DNA of 64,000 nucleotides from Rickettsiales bacterium (GTDB taxonomy: Bacteria > Pseudomonadota > Alphaproteobacteria > Rs-D84), in assembly GCA_031283185.1 (NCBI GenBank), contig JAITCH010000010.1, positions 63,237 through 127,236 on the forward strand, written 5' to 3'. The notes under the pieces were generated by a model that saw only the letters and a program-made list of their open reading frames with translations, ran no database searches and was not told the DNA's origin. How positions within the stretch are numbered: position 1 is the first letter of the stretch; every line of letters starts with the position of its first letter. Shown here piece by piece: positions 2,446 through 37,865 of the stretch. The position numbers and the translations under genes are program-made.

Positions 2446-2460
2446 AAAACGGGTGATAAA

Positions 2461-2868
2461 ATGGAACAATTTTTACAAGGACAATTATTTGCGGCAATTA
2501 TAATTTTAATACTAACAACAATTCTGACATTTGTTTCTAGCTATTTTTTAGAACGACAGCGCGCTAAAAAAGAAATTCAGCAAAAACTATTAATCAAACG
2601 ACTAGAAACATATGAAACACTTATGGAACTGATAAAGAATTGGCGGAATTTGATTCGCAATAAAAAAGAAAATAATGATGAAATTATGAGAATAAAACAA
2701 ATTGCTATTGATATTGAATCAAAATGTCTTCTATATGCATCTCACGAAGTGTGTCAGGAATACTCTAGGTTGGTTAATTGTGCCATGGATCAAAAAATAT
2801 TTGAATCCCCTGACAAACTTACACAAATAATACGAAAAGAGATTGGCAACGACAATCTTCCAAGTTAA
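2461..2868 (+). CDS. hypothetical protein with an N-terminal TM helix and a coiled-coil-like region
   Basis: The ORF has an RBS-like GGGTGATAAA upstream and a hydrophobic N-terminus (AAIIILILTTILTFV). No domain is recognised. Confidence 0.4.
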   Translation: MEQFLQGQLFAAIIILILTTILTFVSSYFLERQRAKKEIQQKLLIKRLETYETLMELIKNWRNLIRNKKENNDEIMRIKQIAIDIESKCLLYASHEVCQEYSRLVNCAMDQKIFESPDKLTQIIRKEIGNDNLPS

Positions 2869-2897
2869 GTGCACTAAATTTTCCCGACTAGTTTTTA

Positions 2898-2970
2898 GCA
2901 GGTGGGGGTTTCCTGCCCCACACTCATCTCCCCTTGTCATTCCCGCGAAGGCGGGAATCTCAAATTGTTA
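2898..2970. repeat. composite repeat family B copy (degenerate G-rich hairpin + GTCATTCCCGCGAAGGCGGGAATCTCAAATTGTTA), overlapping the 3' end of the GIY-YIG gene
   Basis: Sequence match to 29117-29194 and 55347-55453. Confidence 0.75.
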
Positions 2971-3278
2971 ATTTCCGCTGTTATTCCGGGGCATATATCT
3001 TCGGACAAATCATTCCATTCGGGATTGCTTTCTATTACCAATCGCTGTTTCCAACTTTTATTCCATTTCTTCAACTGCTTTTCCCGCACAACGGCGTGTT
3101 CCATATCTCCTTGAACTTCATACCAAACCAACTTATCCAGGTTGTATCTGTCGGAATGGCTATCCTTGAAAAACCCCGTCTTGTGTTGGTAAACGCGATT
3201 AACCAGGTCGGAGGTTGATCCGATATAGGTTCTGCCCATCCAACAATTAGTCATAATATATACGCAAGGCTGTTTCAT
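2937..3278 (-). CDS. GIY-YIG nuclease family protein (YhbQ/UPF0213-like)
   Basis: Starts VYIMTN...GRTYIGSTSDLVNRVYQHK...KLVWYE, which fits the GIY-YIG core. The last ~10 codons (NNLRFPPSRE) are encoded by the repeat at 2936-2970. Confidence 0.7.
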   Translation of the reverse strand: MKQPCVYIMTNCWMGRTYIGSTSDLVNRVYQHKTGFFKDSHSDRYNLDKLVWYEVQGDMEHAVVREKQLKKWNKSWKQRLVIESNPEWNDLSEDICPGITAEINNLRFPPSRE

Positions 3279-3325
3279 AGGACAAGGCTATCAAATTTTA
3301 TAAGTCCGCATCAAAGGATTTTTTA

Positions 3326-3406
3326 CAATTTGAGATTCCCGCCTTCGCGGGAATGACGACACTTCGTGTCGTTTCTAGCGGGTGGGGGTCGGGAGATCCC
3401 CACCCG
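3326..3406. repeat. composite repeat family B copy in inverted orientation (CAATTTGAGATTCCCGCCTTCGCGGGAATGAC ... GCGGGTGGGGGTCGGGAGATCCCCACCCGC)
   Basis: Reverse complement of the family B consensus. Together with 2898-2970 it brackets the GIY-YIG gene. Confidence 0.75.
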
Positions 3407-3418
3407 CCAAATGGAAAT

Positions 3419-4087
3419 TTATTTTATTTTCTGCTGCCCGACCATTGCCATTAGATTGCGTCTGTCGTCATTATGTAATTCGGGTAAATCCGCACAGGTA
3501 TCGCGGATCAAAGTTTCGAAATATAATCTGTAAGTATCCGAATGTAATTTTTTAATTTTGTTCTTATTGAAATTCAATTCTCCGTTCCGCCGCCGCCGCG
3601 GATAATTTTCCAAATCTTCAATATCTTCCTGTGTTGATTCAATCTGTTCGTCTAGGCAGGCGTTGTGCATACGAATTTCGTAATCGTATGCATTCTTTGC
3701 GACTATTCCATCTGCGCCGACACGGACGATTTCATAGCAGACATCGCGTAAAATTACCGGCTTGATCTTAATTTGGATGCCGATGATCCCGGCTTTGCCC
3801 ATTTTAAGGATTGCATTTTCGAATTTTATATCTTCATCCATTATGTGGGATAGACATTTGGCGTCCTTTGTCCCGTTGGCGCAAAGCCCAAGGGCATTTT
3901 GGAAGATGTCGTTGTTTGATGGATAGTTTAGAAAGATATGTTGTGTTTCCGGGTCAAGTGATTTTAATCCGGCGCGTTCGTCAACGACGCTTTTTGACAT
4001 AGAGTAAATTTCTTGGATAATTTTTACAATTCGGACGGCTTTTAATTGGGTTCGGTTTTCCCAATAGTTTTTTGGCGGTTTGTTCAT
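3419..4087 (-). CDS. hypothetical protein (222 aa)
   Basis: Long ORF divergent from the small paralog pair. No domain is recognised. Confidence 0.45.
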   Translation of the reverse strand: MNKPPKNYWENRTQLKAVRIVKIIQEIYSMSKSVVDERAGLKSLDPETQHIFLNYPSNNDIFQNALGLCANGTKDAKCLSHIMDEDIKFENAILKMGKAGIIGIQIKIKPVILRDVCYEIVRVGADGIVAKNAYDYEIRMHNACLDEQIESTQEDIEDLENYPRRRRNGELNFNKNKIKKLHSDTYRLYFETLIRDTCADLPELHNDDRRNLMAMVGQQKIK

Positions 4088-4231
4088 TTGCGGCCTCTTT
4101 TCCTACACAATACAACCATAATTTAATTGTGTCAATAAATAAAATTCCTCAGCCTGGCATAGGTAAAAAATCCCATAGGATTTTCGTCAAAAATATGATA
4201 CAATGCTCGGTCAAATAAATAGGAATTACAA

Positions 4232-4444
4232 ATGGCACTTTTTGAACTTAATGGGTATTTGGTTGGGAATGACCAATACGGACACTTGAATGTAATAAGA
4301 AAACTTGAAGATGGCGAAAAGGAATGGTTGGGCAAAATGTGCCCGCCGCCACTGCCACAAGAGAATGTCGGCGCGGTATCGAAATTGCTGAATTTTTTAA
4401 GAAAGACTATAGCGGATGCTTCCCGTCAAAGGGCTGTGGCATAA
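4232..4444 (+). CDS. small hypothetical protein (70 aa), first of a tandem paralog pair
   Basis: The ORF starts MALFELNGYLV... and contains CPPP. A -10-like TACAAT lies upstream. Confidence 0.5.
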   Translation: MALFELNGYLVGNDQYGHLNVIRKLEDGEKEWLGKMCPPPLPQENVGAVSKLLNFLRKTIADASRQRAVA

Positions 4445-4456
4445 AGGAGAAAACTG

Positions 4457-4671
4457 ATGGCATTATTTGAGTTAAATGGATTTCTTGTCCATAATGATGA
4501 TTTTGGACAGATAAATGTAATAAGAAAACTGGATGAACAGGAAAAAGAGTGGCTCGGTGGGCTTTGTCCCCCCCCCCATTCGCTAGTGCAGCGGCGAGAT
4601 TAAATACAGAATTCCTGTTATATTTGCGGAATAGGGCGAATATAGATAGTCGGCAAAGGGCTGTGGCATAA
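4457..4671 (+). pseudogene. tandem paralog of 4232..4444, interrupted or phase-shifted at a poly-C(10) tract (present frame stops at 4603)
   Basis: An AAGGAGA RBS sits 7 nt upstream. The N-terminus MALFELNGFLVHNDDFGQINVIRKLDEQEKEWLGGLCPPP parallels copy 1. After the C10 tract (4568-4577), the +1 frame encodes ...NTEFLLYLRNRANIDSRQRAVA, homologous to the copy-1 C-terminus ...NFLRKTIADASRQRAVA. Confidence 0.6.
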
Positions 4672-4697
4672 TAATTGAATAAATTAACGAGGATAAA

Positions 4698-4895
4698 TTG
4701 ACTCTGAAAGAGATTCCTGGCGCATTGATTGCGGTGGATTGTTTGGGTAATGTTGATGTGCGTCATAAGGTGGATAACGAACATAAGTTTAAGCGGACGG
4801 ATGGGACGCATTCGTCCAGCAAGGTTTCGCATCCGACCCCGCTTGATGCGGCGTTGAGCATTTCTAATCTTGCCCATAAAACTATTGCGCGTTAG
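4698..4895 (+). CDS. small hypothetical ORF (65 aa, TTG start)
   Basis: GAGGATAAA precedes the TTG. A strong hairpin terminator follows at 4927-4965. No homology is recognised. Confidence 0.3.
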   Translation: MTLKEIPGALIAVDCLGNVDVRHKVDNEHKFKRTDGTHSSSKVSHPTPLDAALSISNLAHKTIAR

Positions 4896-4926
4896 CCTAA
4901 AAATAGTTGGCGCGACCGATACAACT

Positions 4927-4965
4927 GCCGGAAGGGGTCTCAGAATCCCTTCCGGCATATTTTAT
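4927..4965 (+). terminator. intrinsic terminator-like hairpin GCCGGAAGGGGTCTCAGAATCCCTTCCGGC followed by ATATTTTA
   Basis: A 9-bp GC-rich stem followed by a T-rich tract, read directly from the sequence. Confidence 0.5.
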
Positions 4966-5003
4966 CGGCATTATATTGGCACTATTCAACCCGTTATACA
5001 CGA

Positions 5004-5036
5004 TGTATATACAAAATGCACGCAAATGTATATACA
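5004..5036. promoter_or_regulatory. two copies of the perfect 10-bp palindrome TGTATATACA with starts 23 bp apart; candidate operator
   Basis: Read directly from the sequence. A TTGACC motif follows at 5044-5049. Confidence 0.35.
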
Positions 5037-5122
5037 GGGGGTGTTGACCCGGACATAAGGTTTTCTGTGGATTTTTATCCTTTGACAAATAATAAAAGTG
5101 GGTGGAAAAGTTATAAAAAGTT

Positions 5123-5249
5123 CTCCTCCATTGGAGGAGTCCCCCACGAAGTGGGGGGAGGTGGTTTAGCCACATTAAGGTAAGTAGTGCGGGGATATTT
5201 GGTTAAACCACCCCGCGCCTACGGCGCACCCCTCCACCGGAGGGGAATT
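5123..5249. repeat. composite structured repeat copy A: hairpin, hairpin, inverted-repeat core GGTGGTTTAGCCAC...GTGGTTAAACCACC, hairpin, hairpin
   Basis: CTCCTCCATTGGAGGAG, TCCCCCACGAAGTGGGGGGA, the core, CGCGCCTACGGCGCA and CCCCTCCACCGGAGGGG. The architecture is the same as the copy at 35317-35454. Confidence 0.8.
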
Positions 5250-5300
5250 GAGCCCTGAAATGGGCGGGATGGAAAACAGACCTTATGGGGTTTGTTCGGT

Positions 5301-7004
5301 TTATTTTGTCATTTTCAGGAATTTTTCGCTGCGTTTGGCGGGCAGGTCATCCGGCTTTTCTTTCGCCAAGGCATCCAACTCTGCGCCAATCGCCTTTGAT
5401 AGATTTTCCATTGTCGTCTGCCAATCCGTATGCGCGCCACCTTCCGGCTCTGCTACAACTTTATCAACAATGCCCAGCGATTTGGCATCCGCCGATGTCA
5501 ATTTTAACGCCTCGGCAGCCTCGGCCTTGAACTTATTGTCCTTCCAACAGATAGAAGCGCAGGATTCCGGCGCAATAACCGAATATACGGCATTTTCCAT
5601 CATCAGCACTCGGTCGCCTGTGGCGATGGCGATTGCCCCGCCGGATCCGCCTTCGCCGACAATGGCTGCGATGTATGGAGTTTTAACTGACAGCCCGACC
5701 TGGATGGAGTTTGCGATTGCTTGGGATTGTCCGCGTTCTTCGGCATCCTTGCCCGCGAATGCGCCCGCCGTATCCACAAGCGACACAATCGGCAGTCCGA
5801 ATTTTTCCGCCAGCATCATAAGCCGTGCGGCCTTGCGATAGCCCTCTGGCGTTGGCATTCCGAATCTGTGCTTGGTTCGCGTTGCCGCATCTCGGCCTTT
5901 TTCTTGCCCCATTATGACGACTGGGCGTCCGCCAAAATATCCGACCCCGCCGATCAATGCCAGGTCTTCGCCGAATTGTCTGTCTCCGGCGAGCGGGATG
6001 AATCCAGAAACCATTCCGTTGATATAGTCCAAAAAGTGTGGGCGGTTTTCGTTTCGCGCCAGCAGGACTTTTTGATAAGCCGGGGGCAGGTCGCTTGCCT
6101 TGGATTCCATTCCGCCGTGATTTGGCGTTGCGATATGCGCGGATTCCTTGTCGCCCTGCTGTTTCATAAGGATGCGTAGGATATTGCCAAGAGTGTCTTT
6201 CAGCGCATCGCGTTTGACGACTATGTCGACCATTCCGTGGTCAAGCAAAAATTCCGCGGTTTGGAAATTGGCGGGTAATTTTTCATGCAGGTTCTGTTCA
6301 ATGACGCGCCGTCCTGCGAATCCGATTCGCGCGCCGCTTTCAGCAATATGAATGTCGCCGATCATTGCAAAGGATGCCGTTACCCCGCCGTATGTCGGGT
6401 CGGCAAGCACGACTATATAAGGCAGCCGTGCATCGCGGAGTTTATTTATTGCGGCGGTGGTGCGTGCCATCTGCATAAGTGATAGTAAATTTTCTTGCAT
6501 TCTCGCGCCGCCGGAACTGGTTATCAATACGAAAGGCTGTTTATGTTTGATGGCGTGTTCTGCGGCGGCGATGATTCCTTCACCGACTGCGCGACCCATT
6601 GATCCGCCGATAAAGTCCATATTCATAACGGCGATGGTTGTTGGAATTCCGCCGACTTCGCCAGTTGCGGCGGCGAGGCCGTCCTTCATTCCAGTTTCAT
6701 CGCGCGCTTCGGACAGGCGGTCTTTATATGGTTTGATGTCGGTAAAGCCCAGCGGATCGTCAACCACGACCGGCATTGGGACGGCGGTAAAATCCAATCC
6801 GTCAAACATCATTTTGAATCGTTGCGGAGGCGTCATTCCGAATATATGTCCACATTTGGGGCATACGCGTAGATTTTTCTTATAGTCTTTATAGAATACT
6901 AATTTTCCGCAAAAGTCGCATTTAATCCACATAAATTTTTTTATGGATTCGTATTTATCATTTTTTTTGATTGGTTCGGCGTCGTTCTTTTTTTTCCAAA
7001 ACAT
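5301..7004 (-). CDS. accD-accA: acetyl-CoA carboxylase carboxyltransferase, fused beta (AccD, zinc finger CDFCGK...CPKCGH) and alpha (AccA) subunits
   Basis: A 567-aa ORF with an AccD N-terminal half and an AccA C-terminal half, both judged by similarity. Confidence 0.9.
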   Translation of the reverse strand: MFWKKKNDAEPIKKNDKYESIKKFMWIKCDFCGKLVFYKDYKKNLRVCPKCGHIFGMTPPQRFKMMFDGLDFTAVPMPVVVDDPLGFTDIKPYKDRLSEARDETGMKDGLAAATGEVGGIPTTIAVMNMDFIGGSMGRAVGEGIIAAAEHAIKHKQPFVLITSSGGARMQENLLSLMQMARTTAAINKLRDARLPYIVVLADPTYGGVTASFAMIGDIHIAESGARIGFAGRRVIEQNLHEKLPANFQTAEFLLDHGMVDIVVKRDALKDTLGNILRILMKQQGDKESAHIATPNHGGMESKASDLPPAYQKVLLARNENRPHFLDYINGMVSGFIPLAGDRQFGEDLALIGGVGYFGGRPVVIMGQEKGRDAATRTKHRFGMPTPEGYRKAARLMMLAEKFGLPIVSLVDTAGAFAGKDAEERGQSQAIANSIQVGLSVKTPYIAAIVGEGGSGGAIAIATGDRVLMMENAVYSVIAPESCASICWKDNKFKAEAAEALKLTSADAKSLGIVDKVVAEPEGGAHTDWQTTMENLSKAIGAELDALAKEKPDDLPAKRSEKFLKMTK

Positions 7005-7073
7005 TTTTATTCTCCCATAATAATTTTCGCCGCAGTGCGGCGATTCATTAATTTCAACTTTTAATTTTTTGGT

Positions 7074-7364
7074 TTAACTTTTTTTCAGATGGTTCATCAC
7101 CTTGAAAAAATCCGCGCTGATTTTGAAGTGGAGTTTCTTGCCCGCTGGCACGGCGATTTTTTCTTTGGAATATGGGTTGTATCCGATTTTAGTAGCGCGT
7201 TCGCGCATTTCGAATGTTCCGAATCTGCGGATTTCTACGCGGTTGCCGATGGCGGCTTGTTCGCGGACTGCATTAAAAAATGTATCGACTACGCGTTCAG
7301 CGGCAGTCTTGTCCATTCGGATAAACCTTACTTGAATTGTTCTGACCAAATCCGATCGTTTCAT
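7074..7364 (-). CDS. ihfB: integration host factor beta / HU-family DNA-binding protein
   Basis: Starts MKRSDLVRTI...GFGTFE...RNPKTG, the HU/IHF fold. The start is chosen at the internal Met. Confidence 0.8.
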   Translation of the reverse strand: MKRSDLVRTIQVRFIRMDKTAAERVVDTFFNAVREQAAIGNRVEIRRFGTFEMRERATKIGYNPYSKEKIAVPAGKKLHFKISADFFKVMNHLKKS

Positions 7365-7486
7365 TGTCTTGCCTTTTACCCTGACCCTCATTGGGGCGGG
7401 GTTGATAAGTGGTCGGCGCAGCCGACATCTAATTTCCAAGTGAATTTAATATAAATTCTGCGTTATTTCAAGCATTTCTTTTTTAC

Positions 7487-7514
7487 TTGCAAAATTTGAC
7501 TGGCAATGTAAAAT
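7487..7514 (+). promoter_or_regulatory. sigma70-like promoter TTGCAA-N16-TAAAAT for the rpmF-plsX-fabH operon
   Basis: Hexamers read from the sequence about 35 nt upstream of the rpmF ATG. Confidence 0.5.
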
Positions 7515-7549
7515 ACGGGGCGATAGAAACAACATAGGGAAGACTAATT

Positions 7550-7723
7550 ATGGCAGTTCCAAAAAAGAAAAAAAGCAAATCTCGTTCCGCGCAGCACAAG
7601 GCGCATAACGCATTGTCTGCGATGCCGGCATCAACCTGCGTGAAATGCGGGGAAAAGAAGCGTCCGCATCATGTATGTGATGCTTGCGGCGCGTATGGCG
7701 AAAAGGCCGTATTGAAGAAATAA
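7550..7723 (+). CDS. rpmF: 50S ribosomal protein L32 (57 aa; shorter than the 60-aa cut-off of the ORF track)
   Basis: MAVPKKKKSKSRSAQHKAHNAL...CVKCGEKKRPHHVCDACGAYG, sitting immediately upstream of plsX as in the conserved cluster. Confidence 0.9.
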   Translation: MAVPKKKKSKSRSAQHKAHNALSAMPASTCVKCGEKKRPHHVCDACGAYGEKAVLKK

Positions 7724-7724
7724 T

Positions 7725-8795
7725 ATGGCATTTGCCGTCCAAAATACTTTTTCAATAGATGCGTTCGGGGGGGATAATGCCCCCCGGGCGGTTCTTGGGG
7801 GATTGAATCAATTCCTGTTTGCCGAACCTGAGTTGTCGGAGAAAATTCGTTTTCGTATTTTCGGCGACCGAGATAGGATTGGCGCATTGATGTCCCGTTA
7901 TCCGCGCGTTATGGCCAAATGTGATATTGTTCACGCGCCGGATATTGTGAATAATAATGATAAAGTCCGCGATGCCGTTAGGAAAGTTGATAGCAGTATG
8001 TTTGCGGCGATCAAGGATGTGCGTGATGGAAATTCTTGCGGGATAATATCTGCGGGGAATACGGGCGCATTGATGGCGTTAAGCAAATTGGCGTTGAAAA
8101 CCGTCGAGGGGATTTCGCGGCCCGCGATAACGACTATGCTGCCATCTGGCACTGGAAATACGCGGGTGGTTATGTTGGATTTGGGTGCGAATGCGGAATG
8201 CGATGAAGAAAATTTGGTGGATTTTGCTGTGCTGGGATCGGCTTATTCCAAGACATTGGGCGGCGCGAGCAGACCGAGAGTCGGGCTGTTGAACATCGGG
8301 GAAGAAGATCAAAAGGGCGATGAAACGCTGCGGAATGTTAACGAGGCGTTCAAGAATAATATAGATAGCCTTCCGTTTGAGTATGTGGGTTTCGTAGAGG
8401 GTAATGATATTTCCAGTGGCGAAATTGATGTGGTTGTTACGGATGGATTTACTGGGAATGTGGTGTTGAAAACGATAGAGGGGACGGCGCGGCTGATGAA
8501 GCGGGTTATGAAGGAAACTTTTGCAAAGTCTATTCTTGCGATATGCGTTTCGTTCGCGTTGCTTCATGTGTTCAAGAGGTTAAAGTCGAAAATCGATCCG
8601 CGTAATTATGCGGGCGCGGCGTTTATAGGGCTGAATGGCTTTGTGGTAAAGACGCATGGAAATTCAGATGCGCTGGCATTTGCGAATGCGGTAAAATATG
8701 CGGTGCAGATGTCTCGCGCGGATTATAATGCGGAAATTAGAAGGGATGTTGCATTGATGGGCAAGGTTAAAGAGGGTTTAAGAAATGGCAGGTAG
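7725..8795 (+). CDS. plsX: phosphate acyltransferase PlsX
   Basis: FGGDNAP...GNTGALMA motifs and the rpmF-plsX-fabH synteny. Confidence 0.9.
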   Translation: MAFAVQNTFSIDAFGGDNAPRAVLGGLNQFLFAEPELSEKIRFRIFGDRDRIGALMSRYPRVMAKCDIVHAPDIVNNNDKVRDAVRKVDSSMFAAIKDVRDGNSCGIISAGNTGALMALSKLALKTVEGISRPAITTMLPSGTGNTRVVMLDLGANAECDEENLVDFAVLGSAYSKTLGGASRPRVGLLNIGEEDQKGDETLRNVNEAFKNNIDSLPFEYVGFVEGNDISSGEIDVVVTDGFTGNVVLKTIEGTARLMKRVMKETFAKSILAICVSFALLHVFKRLKSKIDPRNYAGAAFIGLNGFVVKTHGNSDALAFANAVKYAVQMSRADYNAEIRRDVALMGKVKEGLRNGR

Positions 8796-29296: not shown

Positions 29297-29372
29297 GGGG
29301 TCGTAGCTCAGTTGGTAGAGCGCTACGTTCGCATCGTAGAGGTCGGGCGTTCGAGTCGCCTCGGCTCCACCA
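29297..29372 (+). tRNA. tRNA-Ala (anticodon CGC), CCA encoded
   Basis: A cloverleaf can be folded by hand, with a G3:U70 identity pair. The anticodon loop is TTCGCAT and the T-loop TTCGAGT. Confidence 0.9.
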
Positions 29373-29404
29373 ATTTTTGCCAAACTTCGTTTAGTTGCAA
29401 ATAA

Positions 29405-29478
29405 GGCTCGGTGGCAGAGTGGTTATGCAGAGGACTGCAAATCCTTGTATGCCGGTTCGATTCCGACCCGAGCCTCCA
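29405..29478 (+). tRNA. tRNA-Cys (anticodon GCA), CCA encoded
   Basis: Acceptor stem GGCTCGG/CCGAGCC, anticodon loop CTGCAAA and T-loop TTCGATT. Confidence 0.9.
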
Positions 29479-29599
29479 AATTTCAATATATTATGGCACA
29501 AATCAAGGCCTTACCTGCCGCGCCCGCCTAGGGCGGGGTGGTCGGCAGGCGTATTCGCCCATCCCAAAATAGACAAAATAATAAATTTCACTAAACTAC

Positions 29600-29627
29600 T
29601 TGACAAACGGAGGCAGTGTGCTATATT
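29600..29627 (+). promoter_or_regulatory. promoter TTGACA-N16-TATATT for the sRNA candidate
   Basis: Near-consensus hexamers read from the sequence. Confidence 0.5.
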
Positions 29628-29633
29628 AATGCT

Positions 29634-29834
29634 GTCTGGGGGGAAACTTCCAGCCAGATTCCTTGGGTCACCAGACTCCCTCCTACATTCTCTCTCCTCT
29701 GGCCCCAAGGAACCAAGATTTTGCCGCATTTCATTTACGCGCGGCGCAGAGCTTAAAGCATTCTGTTTCTCCTTTCCTTCCTCCTTCATTTGGAATGCTT
29801 TGGTCCCCCGGATAAAACCGGGGGAAGTTTTTTA
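29634..29834 (+). ncRNA. candidate ~200-nt CU-rich small RNA with its own promoter and intrinsic terminator (CCCCCGG-ATAAAA-CCGGGGG + T6)
   Basis: Delimited by a promoter and a terminator, with no ORF. The pyrimidine-rich tracts CUCCCUCCUAC and CUCCUUUCCUUCCUCCUUC resemble anti-Shine-Dalgarno seed regions. Confidence 0.45.
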
Positions 29835-29837
29835 TCT

Positions 29838-29866
29838 TGCAAACTGATTGTGCTGACATTAATATC
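29838..29866 (+). promoter_or_regulatory. promoter TTGCAA-N17-TAATAT for tRNA-Leu
   Basis: Hexamers lie 14 nt upstream of the tRNA-Leu 5' end. Confidence 0.55.
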
Positions 29867-29880
29867 AATGGGCTTAAATG

Positions 29881-29965
29881 CGGTCGTGGCGAAATTGGTA
29901 GACGCACTACCTTGAGGTGGTAGCGAGTAAAATCATGGGAGTTCAAGTCTCCCCGACCGCACCAA
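29881..29965 (+). tRNA. tRNA-Leu (anticodon GAG), long variable arm, CCA encoded
   Basis: Acceptor stem GCGGTCG/CGACCGC, anticodon loop TTGAGGT and an 85-nt length with an extra arm. Confidence 0.9.
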
Positions 29966-30679: not shown

Positions 30680-32119
30680 ATGAAAAAATACATAACCACG
30701 CCGATTTACTATATGAATGCCGCGCCCCATATTGGCAGCGCATATACCACCGCAATGTGCGATATTTTGCGCCGCGCTTATATCCGCCAAGGGCACGAGG
30801 TTTTCTTTACCAGCGGCAGTGATGAGCACGGCCAGAAAATGCAAGAGGCTGCGGAACGCGCCGGTATGTCATTTACGGAATTTTTGGATAAACAAAGCGC
30901 GCGGTTTAGGGAACTTACGATTGCGCTGAATGCCGCGCCGGATTTCTTTATTCGCACCAGTATGGATCAGCATAAAAAGATTGTCAGCGAATGGCTGGCG
31001 GACGCGCATCAAAAGGGCATTTTGGTAAAGAAAAAGTATAAGGGGCTTTATTGTGTCGGCTGCGAGCAGTTCAAGAAAGAATCAGATTTGATAGAGGGCG
31101 GCCTGTGCCCAGACCACCGCAAAGCACCGGTTGAAATGGAAGAAGAAAATTACTTTTTACCATTAGAGCCGCACCGCGAATGGTTGCGGGAATACATTGC
31201 GAAAAATCCCGAATGGATTCAGCCGGAAAGTTATCGCGCTGAAATTCTTAATATGTTATCAGAGCCGTTGGAGGATTTGTCCATTTCGCGGCCCCGGTCG
31301 CGGGTTGCACTGGGGATTGAATTTCCATTTGACGGGGATCATATAACTTATGTTTGGTATGACGCGCTGATTAATTATGTGTCTTCATTGCGTATAAACA
31401 AGTTTGATGAATTTTGGGCGGGCGCGATTCATGTAATTGGCAAGGACATATTAAAACCGCATTGTATTTTCTGGCCGATAATGTTGCGCGTTATGGGTAT
31501 GCCCCCGGCGCACCGCACATTTATACACGGATTTTGGACGGGCGAGGGCGGAATAAAAATGTCAAAGTCGCTGGGGAATGTAATTGATCCGTTTGAAGTT
31601 ATTGATGAAATCGGCGCGGACGCGTTAAGGTTTTACTTCGCACAGAACGCGGCGATTGCAAGGGATTCGACTATATCGCGGGAGTTGCTGAGAAAGGGCT
31701 ATGAAACCTTGGCGAACAATTTCGGCAATTTGTATCTGCGAACTTTTAAGATGATTGAGAAATATAATGTAGAATTCCCCTCCAAGGCTTGTCGCGCCGA
31801 AACGAAGTGTAGGCGGATGGAGGGGTCGGCGAAGCCGGGGGTGGTTGAGAATCTATCCGACATCCAAACCCTTGCGAATGATATTTTACGGCGCAGTTCG
31901 GAGTTAAATTTGTATATAGATCAGACGCAGCCGTGGGCATTGGCAAAGGACGAGGCGAAGAGGGATGAGTTGGTGCAGGTGCTGCAAACATTGGCGAATG
32001 GGGTTTTGGAATTGGCAGATGCGGTTGCGCCGATTATGCCGGATACTTCGGATAAAATTATTCAGTCATTCAAAACCAAAGAGTCCGTAGTCCTGTTTCC
32101 AAAGTTGGAAGATAAATAA
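30680..32119 (+). CDS. metG: methionyl-tRNA synthetase (short form)
   Basis: HIGH motif PHIGSAYT, zinc knuckles CVGC...CPDH, and KMSKS. Confidence 0.9.
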   Translation: MKKYITTPIYYMNAAPHIGSAYTTAMCDILRRAYIRQGHEVFFTSGSDEHGQKMQEAAERAGMSFTEFLDKQSARFRELTIALNAAPDFFIRTSMDQHKKIVSEWLADAHQKGILVKKKYKGLYCVGCEQFKKESDLIEGGLCPDHRKAPVEMEEENYFLPLEPHREWLREYIAKNPEWIQPESYRAEILNMLSEPLEDLSISRPRSRVALGIEFPFDGDHITYVWYDALINYVSSLRINKFDEFWAGAIHVIGKDILKPHCIFWPIMLRVMGMPPAHRTFIHGFWTGEGGIKMSKSLGNVIDPFEVIDEIGADALRFYFAQNAAIARDSTISRELLRKGYETLANNFGNLYLRTFKMIEKYNVEFPSKACRAETKCRRMEGSAKPGVVENLSDIQTLANDILRRSSELNLYIDQTQPWALAKDEAKRDELVQVLQTLANGVLELADAVAPIMPDTSDKIIQSFKTKESVVLFPKLEDK

Positions 32120-32123
32120 AATT

Positions 32124-32402
32124 CTAATGATGCATCGAATGGCAATTATGACAAACCGATACCAACCAGTCGATGGGTTCTCTGCCGATGTTCCTTGCAT
32201 ATTTTAAGTGATGAACTTGTGTCGCGCGAGCACCACAATATACGCAACGCCAATTATCTCGCTTGAACACCAAATAACGCTTTCGTTGCCAAGCATCTGA
32301 TTTAAGGTAGTCGTTCCGATAATAATCTCTCCGCCATTTCCGCTTCAAATTATTAAAAAACACAAACAAGATTATTAAAACTATTGAAAACAAAATTTGC
32401 AT
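32124..32402 (-). CDS. membrane-anchored HNH endonuclease-like protein (92 aa)
   Basis: An N-terminal TM helix followed by CVYCG...HHL...CHNCH. Confidence 0.65.
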   Translation of the reverse strand: MQILFSIVLIILFVFFNNLKRKWRRDYYRNDYLKSDAWQRKRYLVFKRDNWRCVYCGARATQVHHLKYARNIGREPIDWLVSVCHNCHSMHH

Positions 32403-32403
32403 T

Positions 32404-33243
32404 TTAGTCGTTCCGGTTAAATTTTAAAACAGAATTTTTATTATATGGGCTTGCATATTGCATTGGTTGTGATTTTTCCAAATAGACTATAATTACAAGA
32501 ACCAAATCCATAAACCAACTTATTTCTTCATTGTCAATGTCATGCGAATCAAAGCCCGGGGTCAACATATTAACATGTTTATAACAACAATATTTAGAAT
32601 AATAATTCGAGAAAGATTTTGCAAATTGATTTTCGCCAAGATTTTCCAAATTATCTAATTTCTTTGAGAATGCTCGGACATAACCTTCTGGATCCGGTCG
32701 TTTGTAAGAGTCTCTTAAAAGTTTTATTTTTTCTGCATTAGTTCCGCCGCGAGTGTTTAGTTTTGTGATCGCTTCTTTGTGCATTTCTTCATAAGTTTTA
32801 TGATTTGCTTTATCCAACTTAACTATGCTTGCGCCACTCTGATTGAGAAATTTCAATAAGGATATATGTGATTGTTGAGATGCAAGGTCGTCAAGATTGT
32901 TTTTATCCATATCAAGTATTATAATCATCCGTCCAACAGCGGAACGCGCTACACATTTATTGAAATTAAGAAGTTTAGGTTCTTTATCATTATCTTTTAT
33001 ATAGCTCAATATCGCACAGGTCTCCAACATCTGACCCGCTGTAAGGAATGCATCATAATAACATTTATTTTCTAGTAGAATTCCAAAGGATTTTATTGAA
33101 CTGCAAATGCGTTCATATAAAAGCCATAAAATATAAAGCATTGTGTCTTCGTTATTAAAAGCAGGGCGCGACATAGGGACGAAATCTTTTATGATTTGGA
33201 TTTTGCCCTCAATATTCCAATTATATTTGCGAGAATTCGTCAT
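32404..33243 (-). CDS. hypothetical protein (279 aa), operonic with the HNH gene and the lipoprotein gene
   Basis: A 1-nt gap to the HNH gene, and a 4-nt overlap with the upstream lipoprotein gene. No domain is recognised. Confidence 0.5.
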   Translation of the reverse strand: MTNSRKYNWNIEGKIQIIKDFVPMSRPAFNNEDTMLYILWLLYERICSSIKSFGILLENKCYYDAFLTAGQMLETCAILSYIKDNDKEPKLLNFNKCVARSAVGRMIIILDMDKNNLDDLASQQSHISLLKFLNQSGASIVKLDKANHKTYEEMHKEAITKLNTRGGTNAEKIKLLRDSYKRPDPEGYVRAFSKKLDNLENLGENQFAKSFSNYYSKYCCYKHVNMLTPGFDSHDIDNEEISWFMDLVLVIIVYLEKSQPMQYASPYNKNSVLKFNRND

Positions 33244-33674
33244 TCCATTTCTTTTTGCGGGATATAATAATCCGAAACTTTATAAAAATTATTAAACTTC
33301 TTTTTTTCATTCTCATTTATTAAAAGAATTGTGTAGTATTGGCTATGTTTTGTTATTTCGGTAGGTATATAGACACCATTTGATACATAGCCGCTTTGGG
33401 ATTTGCTTGTGTTGCCATCTTTTGACAACATAGAAAAATATTCATACCCCGTGCCATTAACAAATTTGGCAGTATTTCGCATACAACTATCTTTAACAAA
33501 AGTGTAATTTGCATACCCATTTCCGCCACAGAAAATACTAAATAATTTTCCATCTAGATGTTCGAATCCTGCTCCTAAAATTTCATTGGTTTTAAGTTCC
33601 TCCACATCAAATCCCGCGGTTGGTTGGGCGCAACCAAAACAAATTATAGGTAAAATCAAAGGCAGTTTTTTCAT
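33240..33674 (-). CDS. hypothetical lipoprotein (144 aa)
   Basis: Signal peptide plus lipobox ICFGCAQ. Confidence 0.5.
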   Translation of the reverse strand: MKKLPLILPIICFGCAQPTAGFDVEELKTNEILGAGFEHLDGKLFSIFCGGNGYANYTFVKDSCMRNTAKFVNGTGYEYFSMLSKDGNTSKSQSGYVSNGVYIPTEITKHSQYYTILLINENEKKKFNNFYKVSDYYIPQKEME

Positions 33675-33746
33675 ATCAAATCCTTTTTAAGAGACACCAG
33701 GATTATAGTCCAGGAAAATACAAAAACAATAAAAAAATTCCCAGCC

Positions 33747-33776
33747 TTGATTTTTACCGCCATTTCAGACTATAAT
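33747..33776 (+). promoter_or_regulatory. promoter TTGATT-N18-TATAAT placed 6 nt before the ATG (leaderless transcript predicted)
   Basis: Hexamers read from the sequence. The start given in the ORF track is the TTG of the -35 hexamer. Confidence 0.45.
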
Positions 33777-33782
33777 CATTCT

Positions 33783-34343
33783 ATGGCAAAGAATCTTTAT
33801 ATTATCGCAGGTGCAAATGGAAGCGGCAAAACAACGCTTGCCCACGAACTTCTTCGTGAAGAAAAAGACCTGGTCTTTCTCAACGCAGACGAAATCGCAC
33901 GGGAAATCAATGATGATTTGGGTCTTCGTGCGGGTAAAATTGTCCTGGAACGCGCTGACGAATTATTAAAGGCAAAAAAATCGGTTGCTTTGGAATCCAC
34001 CATTTCGGGAAAATATCACGAGCGTCTAATTGAAAAATTCAAGAAATCTGGGTATGAAATTGTCCTAATTTATGTCTTCCTTAATCTCCCGGAACTCAAC
34101 ATTGCAAGAATCAAAAATCGGGTTGCGCTTGGTGGGCACAATGTCCCTGATCAAGATGTCATAAGGCGTTTTCATAAAAGCGTTAAAAATTTTTGGGCGG
34201 CGACAGGGCTTGCCGACCGGTGGAAACTTTATTACAATGGCGATGACAATTATGAGCAGATTGCAGCCGGTCGGGATGATGTCCTTGAAATTCTGAATGA
34301 TGACCTTTATAATCGGTTTAAGAAAGGGCTGAAAAATGGATAA
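33783..34343 (+). CDS. zeta-toxin family P-loop kinase-like protein (COG4185-like)
   Basis: Walker A GANGSGKTT and the family-typical RV.LGGHNVP...IRRF motif. Confidence 0.65.
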   Translation: MAKNLYIIAGANGSGKTTLAHELLREEKDLVFLNADEIAREINDDLGLRAGKIVLERADELLKAKKSVALESTISGKYHERLIEKFKKSGYEIVLIYVFLNLPELNIARIKNRVALGGHNVPDQDVIRRFHKSVKNFWAATGLADRWKLYYNGDDNYEQIAAGRDDVLEILNDDLYNRFKKGLKNG

Positions 34344-34524
34344 AAAAGATTACGAATTGTCGGCAAAAATTACGCGCCTTGCCAATCGCGGTGTTCGCAA
34401 GGCAATTGATGCGGCGCATCGTGCGGGACTTGCCGTGCCATATGCTTTGGGCAATAAAATTTTATATCAACTTCCAGACGGCAGCATCACTGACAAACAG
34501 CCGAAAGTAATTAAGAAAAAATAA
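34336..34524 (+). CDS. small protein (62 aa), translationally coupled to the kinase-like gene (8-nt overlap)
   Basis: Overlapping stop/start ATGGATAA. No homology is recognised. Confidence 0.4.
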   Translation: MDKKDYELSAKITRLANRGVRKAIDAAHRAGLAVPYALGNKILYQLPDGSITDKQPKVIKKK

Positions 34525-35522: not shown

Positions 35523-37865
35523 ATGAAGATATTGAAACACCAATTTTTATGGTTTTCTGCTGCTTTGCTTGCGCTTGCATTGCCCGCGGCGTCCGAGCCT
35601 CGGCCAGATTTGGCGGACAATGAAGAAATAATTATTGATGAAGAAATTTATACCGAAGAATCAGAAACCCCGGCGGAACAGGGCGCGCGTCCAGTTATGG
35701 CATCTGCACCGGGAATGGTTCGTACGGGAACTCGGTCGGTTCGTGCTGGCGCAGCACCTGTGGCGGGTGCGATGACGCAGCAGCAGGGCAGGGGCGTTGT
35801 CAGCCGCCAGCCGGGAAATTTACAGCCTGCATTTAATAGTGGGCGCGTGGTCAGCGGGCGAAGTGCGGTGAATACGGGTCAGGTGAATGCGAATACAGCG
35901 CAAAGGTCGGCAACGACATCTCGTCCGACTGCGAATGCAGCAACCCCAAGATCTGGCGAAATTCATAGCCGCACTACTGGGCGGACTGGTGCGGTTCAAA
36001 CGGCACCTGCGGCTGATTCTGCGCGGACAATTTCTGCGCGGACACCTGGAACTACGGCAAGTGGTGTGAATACTGCGCGCGCATCGGTTATTACTTCGGT
36101 GAACAAGGCGTCTCCGGCGGCGGCGCGGCGGTCAAACAATACGGCGCGTAATGCTACGGCGGATGTGGTTGATCCTTCGGTGGAAAAGTATTCCAAGATG
36201 CGCCAGGAAGTCGAAAATCTAAAAACCGAAATGAACATTAATAATGACAAGGCAGAGGTTTATGCCCAGGTTTATGATAATTGCGAGGCGCGGTTCTTCG
36301 GATGTATGGATGACATTTGCGAACGGGTCAGCGATGAGATGGGTCGTTGCGCTTGTTCGCCGAATGCGGATACATATAAAGAAAATGCAGAGGCGTTAAA
36401 GCAGGCGAAGATTGACTTGCAGGATACGGTTCAGAATATCCAGTATTTGGGATTGACGGCAGAGGAAGTTAATTCGCTGTTCACAATTACCGAGGCCGAA
36501 GGCGCCTTAGAGGCGAATCAGTTTGGCGGCGGCGACCAGTCGGAATTGAAAAAAATGATTATGGGGATTCGTGATAACATTCCGGACATAAATAATCTCA
36601 GTTCTACCAGCAGCGGGATATTGACATCTTCGACTGGTTGGAATTTGGACGCAGATTTTTCGATTATGACGGATATGAATTCGTTCACATTTGGTAATGT
36701 AAAGGGCAATCAGTTCAATGACATTTCTGGTATGACTGGCGGCGATTTGTATAAAAGCGCGAAGAATGTGTGTCAAACCATTATGAACGAATGCAAAAAG
36801 AATAAGGTTGATGTGGACTTGATGCAGGCGAAATATGATGTAGAGGTTGGCAAGGCCTGCGTAGATTATAAAGGTATGTTAGAGGATCAGACGCAGTCAT
36901 TAAAAACCTTGAACAGGAATGCGAAGTATATGTTGGAACGCGCAAGATTTTCCGTGCATCAGAACAAGAACGCGTTGGATTTGAAGGGTTGCGTGCTGGA
37001 AATTGATAAATGTATGCAAGATGATTTCGTATGCGGTAAGGATTATAAGAAATGCCTCGATCCGACTGGTCAGTATATTTCAGTGGATAGCAAGGTTGTT
37101 CCCGGCGCAGATTTGCCTGTTGGCCAGATAAGGTTGTGGGGCGCACGGAAAAGCGCAGTTAATTATAGCGAACTTGCGGGTCTTGGTGCCACTTCTAAAG
37201 ATATAGTGTCTGTGAATGGTGCGGCGGGATCTACTAATTACTTGGTTAATATGCTTACCTCCAAGGTGGGCGAGATTGATAAACTGACGGGTAATGCGAC
37301 CAGTGGATATTGCGCGGGTGTTATGAGGCAGTGTCAGCGGTTCAGTTATGATTCGAATGCACAGTATAATTCGAATAATCTTGTGATTAAGAATTATGTA
37401 TATATGGCATTGCCAAAGATTATGTCGGCACAGGATACGATGATAAGCAATTATCGGACGCAGTGCACAACGGACTTAAAGCAGTGTTATCAGACGCAGT
37501 TGTTGACTTTCAATACTGGGCAGTATTATGGCGGACAAATAAACGGCAGCCAGTTGACCTGGGCGCATCTGAATTCAGCATTGTATGCGTGTGATAATAT
37601 AGGGCTTTCGTGCGCGTTCACTGTATTTAGCGGCGCGGATAATTTAGGAGAAACCGATAGCAGCGCGACAGCGAAGCAATGTCCGAGATATATAAAATGC
37701 GATGCAGAAAAAGGAACCTGTGATAATAAAGCAACCTTTGATGCCGATGGTTCTGCCCAAATATGTTCTAGAAGTATGATGATTAATTTGATTCAGGGCT
37801 TGTTGCAGTGTAATGGAACTTATCCAAAGACTTGGGAACCTGATAATAATGCTGTTTGCAAATAA
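35523..37865 (+). CDS. large secreted protein (780 aa): signal peptide, ~200-aa disordered R/T/A/S-rich region, coiled coil, Cys-rich C-terminal domain
   Basis: Signal peptide MKILKHQFLWFSAALLALALPAA and low-complexity composition. No domain is recognised. Confidence 0.55.
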   Translation: MKILKHQFLWFSAALLALALPAASEPRPDLADNEEIIIDEEIYTEESETPAEQGARPVMASAPGMVRTGTRSVRAGAAPVAGAMTQQQGRGVVSRQPGNLQPAFNSGRVVSGRSAVNTGQVNANTAQRSATTSRPTANAATPRSGEIHSRTTGRTGAVQTAPAADSARTISARTPGTTASGVNTARASVITSVNKASPAAARRSNNTARNATADVVDPSVEKYSKMRQEVENLKTEMNINNDKAEVYAQVYDNCEARFFGCMDDICERVSDEMGRCACSPNADTYKENAEALKQAKIDLQDTVQNIQYLGLTAEEVNSLFTITEAEGALEANQFGGGDQSELKKMIMGIRDNIPDINNLSSTSSGILTSSTGWNLDADFSIMTDMNSFTFGNVKGNQFNDISGMTGGDLYKSAKNVCQTIMNECKKNKVDVDLMQAKYDVEVGKACVDYKGMLEDQTQSLKTLNRNAKYMLERARFSVHQNKNALDLKGCVLEIDKCMQDDFVCGKDYKKCLDPTGQYISVDSKVVPGADLPVGQIRLWGARKSAVNYSELAGLGATSKDIVSVNGAAGSTNYLVNMLTSKVGEIDKLTGNATSGYCAGVMRQCQRFSYDSNAQYNSNNLVIKNYVYMALPKIMSAQDTMISNYRTQCTTDLKQCYQTQLLTFNTGQYYGGQINGSQLTWAHLNSALYACDNIGLSCAFTVFSGADNLGETDSSATAKQCPRYIKCDAEKGTCDNKATFDADGSAQICSRSMMINLIQGLLQCNGTYPKTWEPDNNAVCK

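Follow-up and report, generated by a model that had tools for sequence, protein, structure and literature searches.

A five-gene island between metG and xth of a Rickettsiales bacterium: a probable mosaic of mobile modules with a candidate reverse-order toxin–antitoxin-like kinase cassette

Gene content and base composition of the locus

The sequence analysed here, termed the window, comprises 64,000 nucleotides (nt) of contig JAITCH010000010.1 (assembly GCA_031283185.1) from a Rickettsiales bacterium. This report concerns a 2.4-kb island within it, located between metG and xth, that carries five open reading frames (ORFs). Three minus-strand genes encode an exported protein of 144 amino acids (aa), a DUF5677-family protein and a small HNH nuclease with a transmembrane (TM) anchor, whilst a P-loop kinase gene and a 62-aa ORF occupy the opposite strand (Table 1). 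A previous reading of the locus, made from the sequence alone, had described the same five ORFs, and the ORF listing of the window placed all of them at the same coordinates. Clear homologues exist for four of them, indicating that these are real genes rather than chance ORFs. The genes for the exported and 279-aa proteins overlap by 4 nt as previously described, but the supposed 1-nt overlap of the 279-aa and HNH genes proved to be a 1-nt gap (TAA-A-ATG on the minus strand).

Table 1. Features of the island, with positions in the window
Feature	Position	Strand
92-aa mini-HNH nuclease with hydrophobic N-terminal anchor	32124..32402	minus
DUF5677-family protein of 279 aa, entirely helical; core predicted to be HEPN-like	32404..33243	minus
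144-aa exported protein, possible lipoprotein; first gene of the AT-rich three-gene unit	33240..33674	minus
Divergent control region, 108 nt	33675..33782	
186-aa P-loop kinase, Pfam Zeta_toxin/AAA_33 member, predicted leaderless mRNA	33783..34343	plus
62-aa basic protein, conserved downstream partner of the kinase	34336..34524	plus

Base composition set the island apart from its surroundings. GC content was 32–34 % over positions 32100–33700, against approximately 46 % for the whole window, and GC content at third codon positions (GC3) was 0.28 for the exported protein gene, 0.30 for the DUF5677 gene and 0.42 for the HNH gene, compared with 0.54 for metG and 0.58 for xth. Being AT-rich, the minus-strand trio looks horizontally acquired and is clearly foreign DNA. 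The kinase gene (GC3 0.39) and the 62-aa ORF (0.40) are also atypical, though less so than the trio. These values agree with the earlier description of an accessory island between housekeeping genes.

The search for known defence systems proposed in the sequence-only reading was carried out with PADLOC-DB v2. There were no hits for the 279-aa, 144-aa and 62-aa proteins; most matches to the kinase were short and weak (E>=5e-5) and began at the Walker A region, and the HNH protein gave motif-level hits only, to DpdF and PD-T7-4. Scans of all five proteins against PADLOC, NCBIfam and PHROG likewise returned no known system, and since no PADLOC or NCBIfam system matched, the modules appear to be undescribed. 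Structure prediction, proposed in the same place, yielded a HEPN-like model for the 279-aa protein and a long helix followed by a beta-hairpin for the 62-aa protein.

A kinase gene coupled to a conserved downstream partner

The kinase matched the Pfam family Zeta_toxin (PF06414) at 48.3 bits, well over the cut-off of 22.3 (E 1.1e-12; residues 9–151 of the 198-aa ORF). That ORF was listed from a TTG at 33747, whilst initiation at ATG 33783 gives a 186-aa product; the latter matches the JGI gene call and the 180–187 aa of most homologues listed, at least 611 homologous clusters being found. Alignment of 36 members showed invariant G10, G13, G15, K16, T18, D36, E71, R109, R113, GGH117-119, R128 and R129, and the Walker A motif GANGSGKTT and the GGHNVP motif, both present here, are invariant family-wide, the latter in the family-specific form GGH(N/D)VP. 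D36 probably corresponds to the catalytic Asp of zeta toxins (Asp67 in zeta, Asp56 in ng_zeta1; PMC5923241). When the family profile was compared with PDB sequences, the polynucleotide kinase Pnkp1 ranked first (4xrp, 4e-7), 1ly1 matched weakly and neither zeta nor PezT structures were retrieved. The earlier designation of a zeta-toxin-family kinase is thus upheld by Pfam, but assignment as a functional zeta toxin is not, given the downstream, unrelated partner gene and Pnkp1 as the nearest solved relative. A single distant relative was found among viral contigs, and literature searches returned nothing specific to this kinase subfamily.

The 62-aa partner is strongly basic (isoelectric point 10.1) and has no Pfam or PDB relative. 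Homologues with 58–63 % identity occupy the same overlapping position in several of the loci retrieved for comparison, here designated by L numbers (L007, L009 and L011–L014), and the order of kinase followed by small ORF recurs in five other contexts: L007, after mraZ; L009, beside uvrC and mazEF; L011–L014, in alphaproteobacterial metagenome-assembled genomes (MAGs); L139, in a Muribaculaceae MAG; and a Persephonella plasmid, where the cassette adjoins traN. The two reading frames overlap in each arrangement, by 8 nt (as in the window) or by a short TAATG-type overlap of 1–4 nt. Two small overlapping genes therefore travel together through unrelated contexts, which is the behaviour expected of type II toxin–antitoxin (TA) modules, and the 62-aa ORF that had been described as coupled to the kinase by an 8-nt overlap is a real, conserved partner. 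None of the kinase homologues longer than 200 aa that were checked was a fusion of kinase and partner, the additional residues forming an N-terminal extension or an unrelated C-terminal tail. There is no same-strand ORF upstream of the kinase gene in the window, where the promoter abuts the ATG, and an antitoxin in the epsilon/PezA position was not found.

The surroundings of related cassettes were also noted. In L009 (positions 4765–8322; a Chitinispirillales MAG) the cassette adjoins mazEF, a gene for a helix-turn-helix repressor and a HEPN/nucleotidyltransferase (MNT) pair, forming a small TA island by uvrC. More distant kinase relatives, of approximately 35 % identity, map to the kle/par maintenance region of plasmids from E. 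coli and Salmonella and have their small ORF on the upstream side, so that both gene orders exist in the wider kinase family. A 'zeta toxin family protein' with 35 % identity is encoded by conjugative plasmids of approximately 41 kb found in E. coli, Salmonella and Klebsiella. In one of these regions (E. coli plasmid pEC187_3, L141, positions 2250–3091) an 83-aa ORF overlaps the start of the zeta-family gene between kleE and trfB/parA/parB, an antitoxin-first layout unlike that of the window. In the window a single minus-strand gene separates the cassette, on its downstream side, from the gene for a 780-aa protein, and the same arrangement, with a homologue of that protein, is seen in L011–L014. 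The 780-aa protein of the window (35523–37865) appears to be secreted; its N-terminal third is of low complexity and rich in Ala, Thr and Arg, and its C-terminal part is rich in Cys. Its homologues, 29–31 % identical, hold the same place relative to the cassette in the other alphaproteobacterial MAGs (e.g. L011:5277–7742).

The plus-strand control signals comprise TTGATT (33747–33752), an 18-nt spacer and TATAAT (33771–33776), followed after 6 nt by ATG 33783. The sequence-only reading had predicted a leaderless kinase mRNA from this spacing, and comparison bore this out: a TAnAAT hexamer, in the form TATAAT or TACAAT, stands exactly 6 nt before the kinase ATG in four of the five chromosomal loci checked (the window, L007, L011 and L139), with the overlap of stop and start codons likewise conserved. 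As the chance of finding such a hexamer at a fixed position is approximately 0.3 % per locus, the conserved spacing strongly supports a leaderless, translationally coupled bicistron. On the minus strand, a TATAAT (complement of 33702–33707), a leader of approximately 21 nt and an AAAGGA Shine–Dalgarno sequence before the ATG of the exported protein gene were recognized by eye with low confidence; the promoter scan did not report them. A direct repeat of CCAGGA (33697–33702 and 33710–33715) brackets this minus-strand −10-like hexamer and may be an operator or a chance occurrence.

A widespread family of membrane-anchored mini-HNH proteins

The 92-aa HNH protein matched PHROG HNH families with E-values down to 1.2e-10, whilst its score against Pfam HNH (PF01844) was 21.0 bits, just below the cut-off of 21.4. 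At least 1105 homologous clusters were found, 65–83 % identical and nearly all 92–105 aa in length, and 275 hits to the family were obtained among 185,579 species genomes, mostly from Bacteroidota but also from gut alphaproteobacterial MAGs, Deferribacterales and Campylobacteraceae. The core follows the layout CxxC...HH...N...CxxCH; C53, C56, H64, H65, C84, C87, H88 and H92 were invariant and N71 nearly so among 31 aligned members. The His-Asn-His residues and CxxC...CxxC zinc ligands that HNH endonucleases require are all present.

An N-terminal TM helix had been described for this protein, and the corresponding segment in the window has a 15-residue Kyte–Doolittle mean of 2.98. The anchor is hydrophobic in 29 of the 31 aligned members, with a length of 17–25 residues across the family and a variable sequence, and is followed by a basic stretch (KRKWRRDYYR in the window, KRKxRRDYYRN in the family). 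Under the positive-inside rule, an N-out/C-in topology is predicted, in which the nuclease domain would face the cytoplasm. Relatives among 2.9 million viral contigs were only 32–41 % identical, none of them close, and 10 of the 12 viral hits aligned only with residues 22–92, downstream of the anchor. Literature searches returned nothing specific to a membrane-anchored HNH protein.

The genomic neighbourhoods of the family are highly varied. Almost all genes flanking the HNH gene in 82 loci fell into distinct similarity clusters, with upstream genes that included Mrr, SIR2, AAA_14/DUF4143, histidine kinase, GHMP kinase, PMT_2 glycosyltransferase and many unknowns; integrases, Mrr, methylases, McrBC, DarT and AbiLi were repeatedly found nearby. 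DNA similarity extends from the ATG to the stop codon of the HNH gene only and third codon positions vary, indicating purifying selection on the protein and no mobile-element scar; no conserved DNA, inverted repeats or att-like sites were detected in the flanks. Searches with the DUF5677 protein (tblastn) gave no hits in the first 12 HNH loci (L035–L046), and all-against-all clustering of the HNH neighbours added a single pairing with DUF5677, in L050.

Two further features of HNH neighbourhoods were recorded. A family of TM-anchored proteins of approximately 120–150 aa without a Pfam match lies beside the HNH gene in 12 of the 82 loci, usually directly upstream with a gap of 22–24 nt, and has a conserved C-terminus (...YYDDQKI.I...KCARQIGTYQY.T....KTVPAVVIE); members were seen in Bacteroidota, in one MAG of Campylobacteraceae and in alphaproteobacterial MAGs (examples among HNH loci L035–L126 are L041:3534–3977, L055:3615–4010, L072:3578–3958 and L035:5072–5428). 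The L050 region (3148–5088; MAG RUG14070) contains, in order, an unknown 282-aa protein gene, a 4-nt gap, the HNH gene, a 23-nt gap and the DUF5677 homologue, whilst the same 282-aa family sits downstream of HNH in L047 (Candidatus Enterousia), which suggests that cassettes around HNH have been shuffled in this clade.

The DUF5677 protein and the exported protein

The 279-aa protein had been described as unknown. This was not wholly so: its score against Pfam DUF5677 (PF18928) is 24.4 bits, below the cut-off of 27.1, but NCBI names it a DUF5677 domain-containing protein and homologues with 38–57 % identity have PF18928 hits, which are precomputed for those with 44–57 % identity. Its fold is predicted with moderate confidence to be HEPN-like. 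Many polar residues are invariant in an alignment of 18 DUF5677 sequences, including LETC..LSYIKD and, at 217–225, KYCxxKH(S)N. The canonical HEPN motif Rx4-6H is absent, the invariant residues being K217-Y-C-x-x-K222-H223-x-N225 with no Arg at the expected spacing; as variant HEPN active sites exist (PMC3710099), a HEPN-type activity may nonetheless be retained. No match emerged when the DUF5677 profile was aligned (hhalign) with a genuine HEPN protein from L009 or with an Abi_C protein from L001, a search of PDB sequences gave a chance hit only, and Foldseek of the model against PDB gave no significant match.

Genomic context was examined for 18 homologues and 20 metagenome loci. The DUF5677 gene stood alone in three looked-up loci and in the 20 metagenome loci, amid defence and mobile genes; neighbours comprised AAA_21/AAA_15 ATPases, integrases, type I restriction–modification subunits, GmrSD, HipA, Abi_C and MazG-like proteins. 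Relatives of the HNH or exported protein were found near DUF5677 in none of the approximately 24 loci (tblastn), and DUF5677 relatives were absent from the 2.9 million viral contigs. A preprint lists DUF5677 among the domains enriched beside serine recombinases in Bacillota (PMC12632615). Several of the closest homologues of the DUF5677 and HNH proteins came from the JGI series Ga0123353, Ga0123355 and Ga0123357, and others belong to Endomicrobium proavitum or to MAGs bearing the labels Lab288/Th196. We take all of these to be termite-gut sources; if that is right, their origin suggests gene exchange inside one gut community.

The 144-aa protein had no match in Pfam, PADLOC, NCBIfam or PHROG, formed a singleton cluster at 90 % identity and had no relatives in plasmids or, by tblastn, beside DUF5677 or HNH homologues. 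Profile comparison with three recurrent clusters of HNH-adjacent exported proteins also gave nothing. It has a signal peptide with the lipobox I-C-F-G before the C (MKKLPLILPIICFG preceding that residue). The lipobox consensus is [LVI][ASTVI][GAS]C; measured against the PROSITE pattern, residues −1 (G) and −2 (F) are acceptable whilst the Cys at −3 lies outside it. The earlier label 'lipoprotein' is thus a possible one, with a lipobox that is non-canonical at −3; the protein is predicted to be exported, lipidated or not.

Flanking genes

Both flanks were identified by Pfam, metG through PF09334 (4e-77) and xth through Exo_endo_phos (1.5e-28). The island had been said to interrupt housekeeping genes; it is placed between them, but neither is broken by it, and the C-terminus of metG (...VLFPKLEDK) looks typical of short-form MetRS. 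No record was found when the exact metG sequence was looked up in search of strain variants without the island. The window also contains a tRNA cluster at 29297–29964 (Ala-CGC, Cys-GCA, Leu-GAG), in which the 400-nt gap between tRNA-Cys and tRNA-Leu matched no Rfam family at gathering threshold.

Interpretation of the island

Together, these data favour the view that several independently mobile modules, rather than one multi-gene system, make up the 2.4-kb stretch as a mosaic, and that the kinase cassette is a TA-like module of reversed gene order; we assign this interpretation a probability of roughly 0.6. The AT-rich, acquired transcription unit would co-express three genes that are not conserved partners. 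Within it, a single N-terminal helix would tether the HNH protein to the inner membrane on its cytoplasmic side as a membrane-restricted DNase, possibly acting on incoming DNA; the DUF5677 protein would be a nucleic acid-targeting, probably RNA-targeting, effector of the defence-island kind; the third product is the exported protein, which has no detectable relatives. The separately inherited cassette on the opposite strand would produce a catalytically intact zeta/polynucleotide-kinase-like enzyme from a leaderless mRNA, with translation coupled to that of the 62-aa basic protein. It may be an addiction or other TA-like module in which toxicity or activity resides in the kinase, to be neutralized or regulated by the small protein. 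The gene structures, homologies and composition, the conserved pairing and signals of the cassette and the lack of conserved partnership within the trio are observed, whereas the biochemical activities, membrane topology, toxicity and any defence role are inferred.

Several observations weigh against this interpretation. As regards the cassette, partial synteny between L011–L014 and the window indicates that it is probably in part vertically inherited in this lineage, and the shared synteny suggests that it is older there than the AT-rich trio. The kinase and the 62-aa protein are both basic, which is atypical of a classic pair with an acidic antitoxin, and the toxicity of the former and its neutralization by the latter are properties that we infer. 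As regards the trio, the ORFs found to protect E. faecalis from six phages did not include the DUF5677 ORF under test (PMC12632615). The three genes are packed like a true operon, with a 4-nt overlap and a 1-nt gap, and share their base composition, so that they may have arrived together and cooperate here. In L050, from an alphaproteobacterial gut MAG, a true DUF5677 homologue (hhalign probability 99 %) lies 23 nt from the HNH gene, and the adjacency of two such rare families is unlikely to reflect pure chance. Lastly, genes directly upstream of HNH were enriched for exported or membrane-anchored products, at 12 of 42 distinct clusters versus 42 of 313 elsewhere (p = 0.02), as judged by a crude hydrophobicity rule applied to ORFs called in this analysis; 25 of 56 loci had an N-terminal hydrophobic segment in this upstream gene. 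We regard the enrichment as an unproven hint of a class of HNH partners.

The main rival for the cassette is a nucleic acid kinase with a basic cofactor, that is, a polynucleotide 5'-kinase-like enzyme and a small basic nucleic acid-binding protein with an end-processing, repair or metabolic role rather than a TA function. We consider such a role unlikely: the cassette has a patchy distribution among phyla, occurs in unrelated contexts that include a plasmid, stands beside other TA genes in L009, has distant relatives in the stable-inheritance regions of plasmids, and has no phosphatase, ligase or Hen1-type repair partner nearby. That the leaderless kinase and 62-aa pair founds a new reverse-order TA family with a new antitoxin fold is a more specific proposal, which we advance tentatively and at somewhat under even odds.

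For the trio, the main rival is a true three-gene system, as the sequence-only reading had proposed in suggesting that the membrane HNH and the 279-aa protein, perhaps together with the lipoprotein, form one system. Such a defence or toxin-immunity system might, for example, consist of an RNase and a tethered DNase that work alongside a protein for envelope sensing or exclusion, and it would account for the tight coupling and common low GC content of the trio, the second HNH–DUF5677 adjacency in L050, the exported or membrane proteins directly upstream of HNH, and the frequent position of HNH loci amid SIR2, GmrSD, Mrr, KAP NTPase, TIR, McrBC, DarT and AbiLi genes. The comparative data do not support it: DUF5677 stands without either of the other two in about 24 loci, approximately 80 HNH loci have nearly all-different neighbours, only one of about 81 other HNH loci (L050) carries a DUF5677 gene and does so in reversed order, housekeeping-type genes also occur upstream of HNH, and the exported protein has no detectable relative. 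We therefore judge a single system improbable, and in this compositionally foreign island tight operon packing was no evidence of a conserved multi-gene system.

A related scenario, which we rate as decidedly improbable, would make the tethered HNH protein of approximately 95 aa the conserved effector of undescribed, modular, envelope-linked defence cassettes, with the operon in the window as a three-gene variant extended by a HEPN-like RNase. The variable upstream protein, often exported or membrane-anchored, would then sense or block the entry of phage or plasmid DNA, and the HNH protein at the cytoplasmic membrane face would cut the DNA as it enters. Finally, a selfish, free-standing homing-type endonuclease that inserts downstream of unrelated genes and has no cellular function would suit the extremely varied contexts of the HNH gene, its two copies in one MAG (JANMDL01 contigs) and the phage HNH proteins that are its closest relatives outside the family, but is very improbable given the absence of conserved flanking DNA, repeats or a target site, homology that does not extend past the start and stop codons, synonymous divergence at 65–83 % protein identity (indicative of long-term purifying selection), a 70-residue core without a DNA-recognition domain, a conserved anchor not expected of a homing enzyme, and the lack of close relatives in the viral contigs.

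The island contains members of two widespread families without described function, the anchored mini-HNH proteins and the kinase plus small-protein cassette, whose leaderless promoter arrangement is shared between phyla. Should the cassette prove to be a TA module, the zeta-kinase class would gain a reversed gene order, a new partner fold and possibly a new substrate, and if the tethered HNH protein acts on entering DNA, it would represent a very compact DNA-entry barrier.

Comparison with known systems

The HEPN toxins and abortive infection proteins (MNT-HEPN, Abi2/AbiD/AbiF and RnlA/LsoA; Anantharaman et al. 2013, PMC3710099) are the nearest known counterparts of the DUF5677 protein. It differs from them in lacking Rx4-6H, from MNT-HEPN toxins in having no MNT or other antitoxin partner, and from the minimal HEPN domain in being twice its size. 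Sequence comparison did not connect it with HEPN families, and Pfam files the protein only as DUF5677.

The kinase cassette resembles epsilon/zeta and PezAT in that the kinase passes the Zeta_toxin threshold and is a small P-loop kinase with a Walker A motif (K16), a conserved Asp after strand 2 (D36) and lid arginines (R109 and R113); it is likewise an overlapping two-gene cassette with a patchy, plasmid-associated distribution. Zeta toxins are UDP-sugar kinases of roughly 250–290 aa in their classical form, with the epsilon or PezA antitoxin encoded upstream. In contrast, the kinase described here is much shorter at 186 aa, its partner is a downstream, unrelated 62-aa basic helix-plus-hairpin protein outside any Pfam family, its mRNA is predicted to be leaderless and its family profile retrieves no zeta or PezT structure. 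Pnkp1 (Capnocytophaga) and T4 Pnk, the nearest solved relatives by profile, have the P-loop kinase core in common with it; in contrast to them, no phosphatase, ligase or Hen1 module is fused to the kinase or encoded beside it, and the Arg that accompanies the catalytic Asp in T4 Pnk is not conserved here.

The best matches to the HNH protein outside its own family are phage packaging-associated HNH proteins (PHROG 144/589; Geobacillus virus E2 HNH, PDB 5h0m), which have a similar core size and the same CxxC...CxxC layout. Unlike these phage proteins, the family described here is chromosomal and has a conserved N-terminal anchor followed by a basic juxtamembrane segment.

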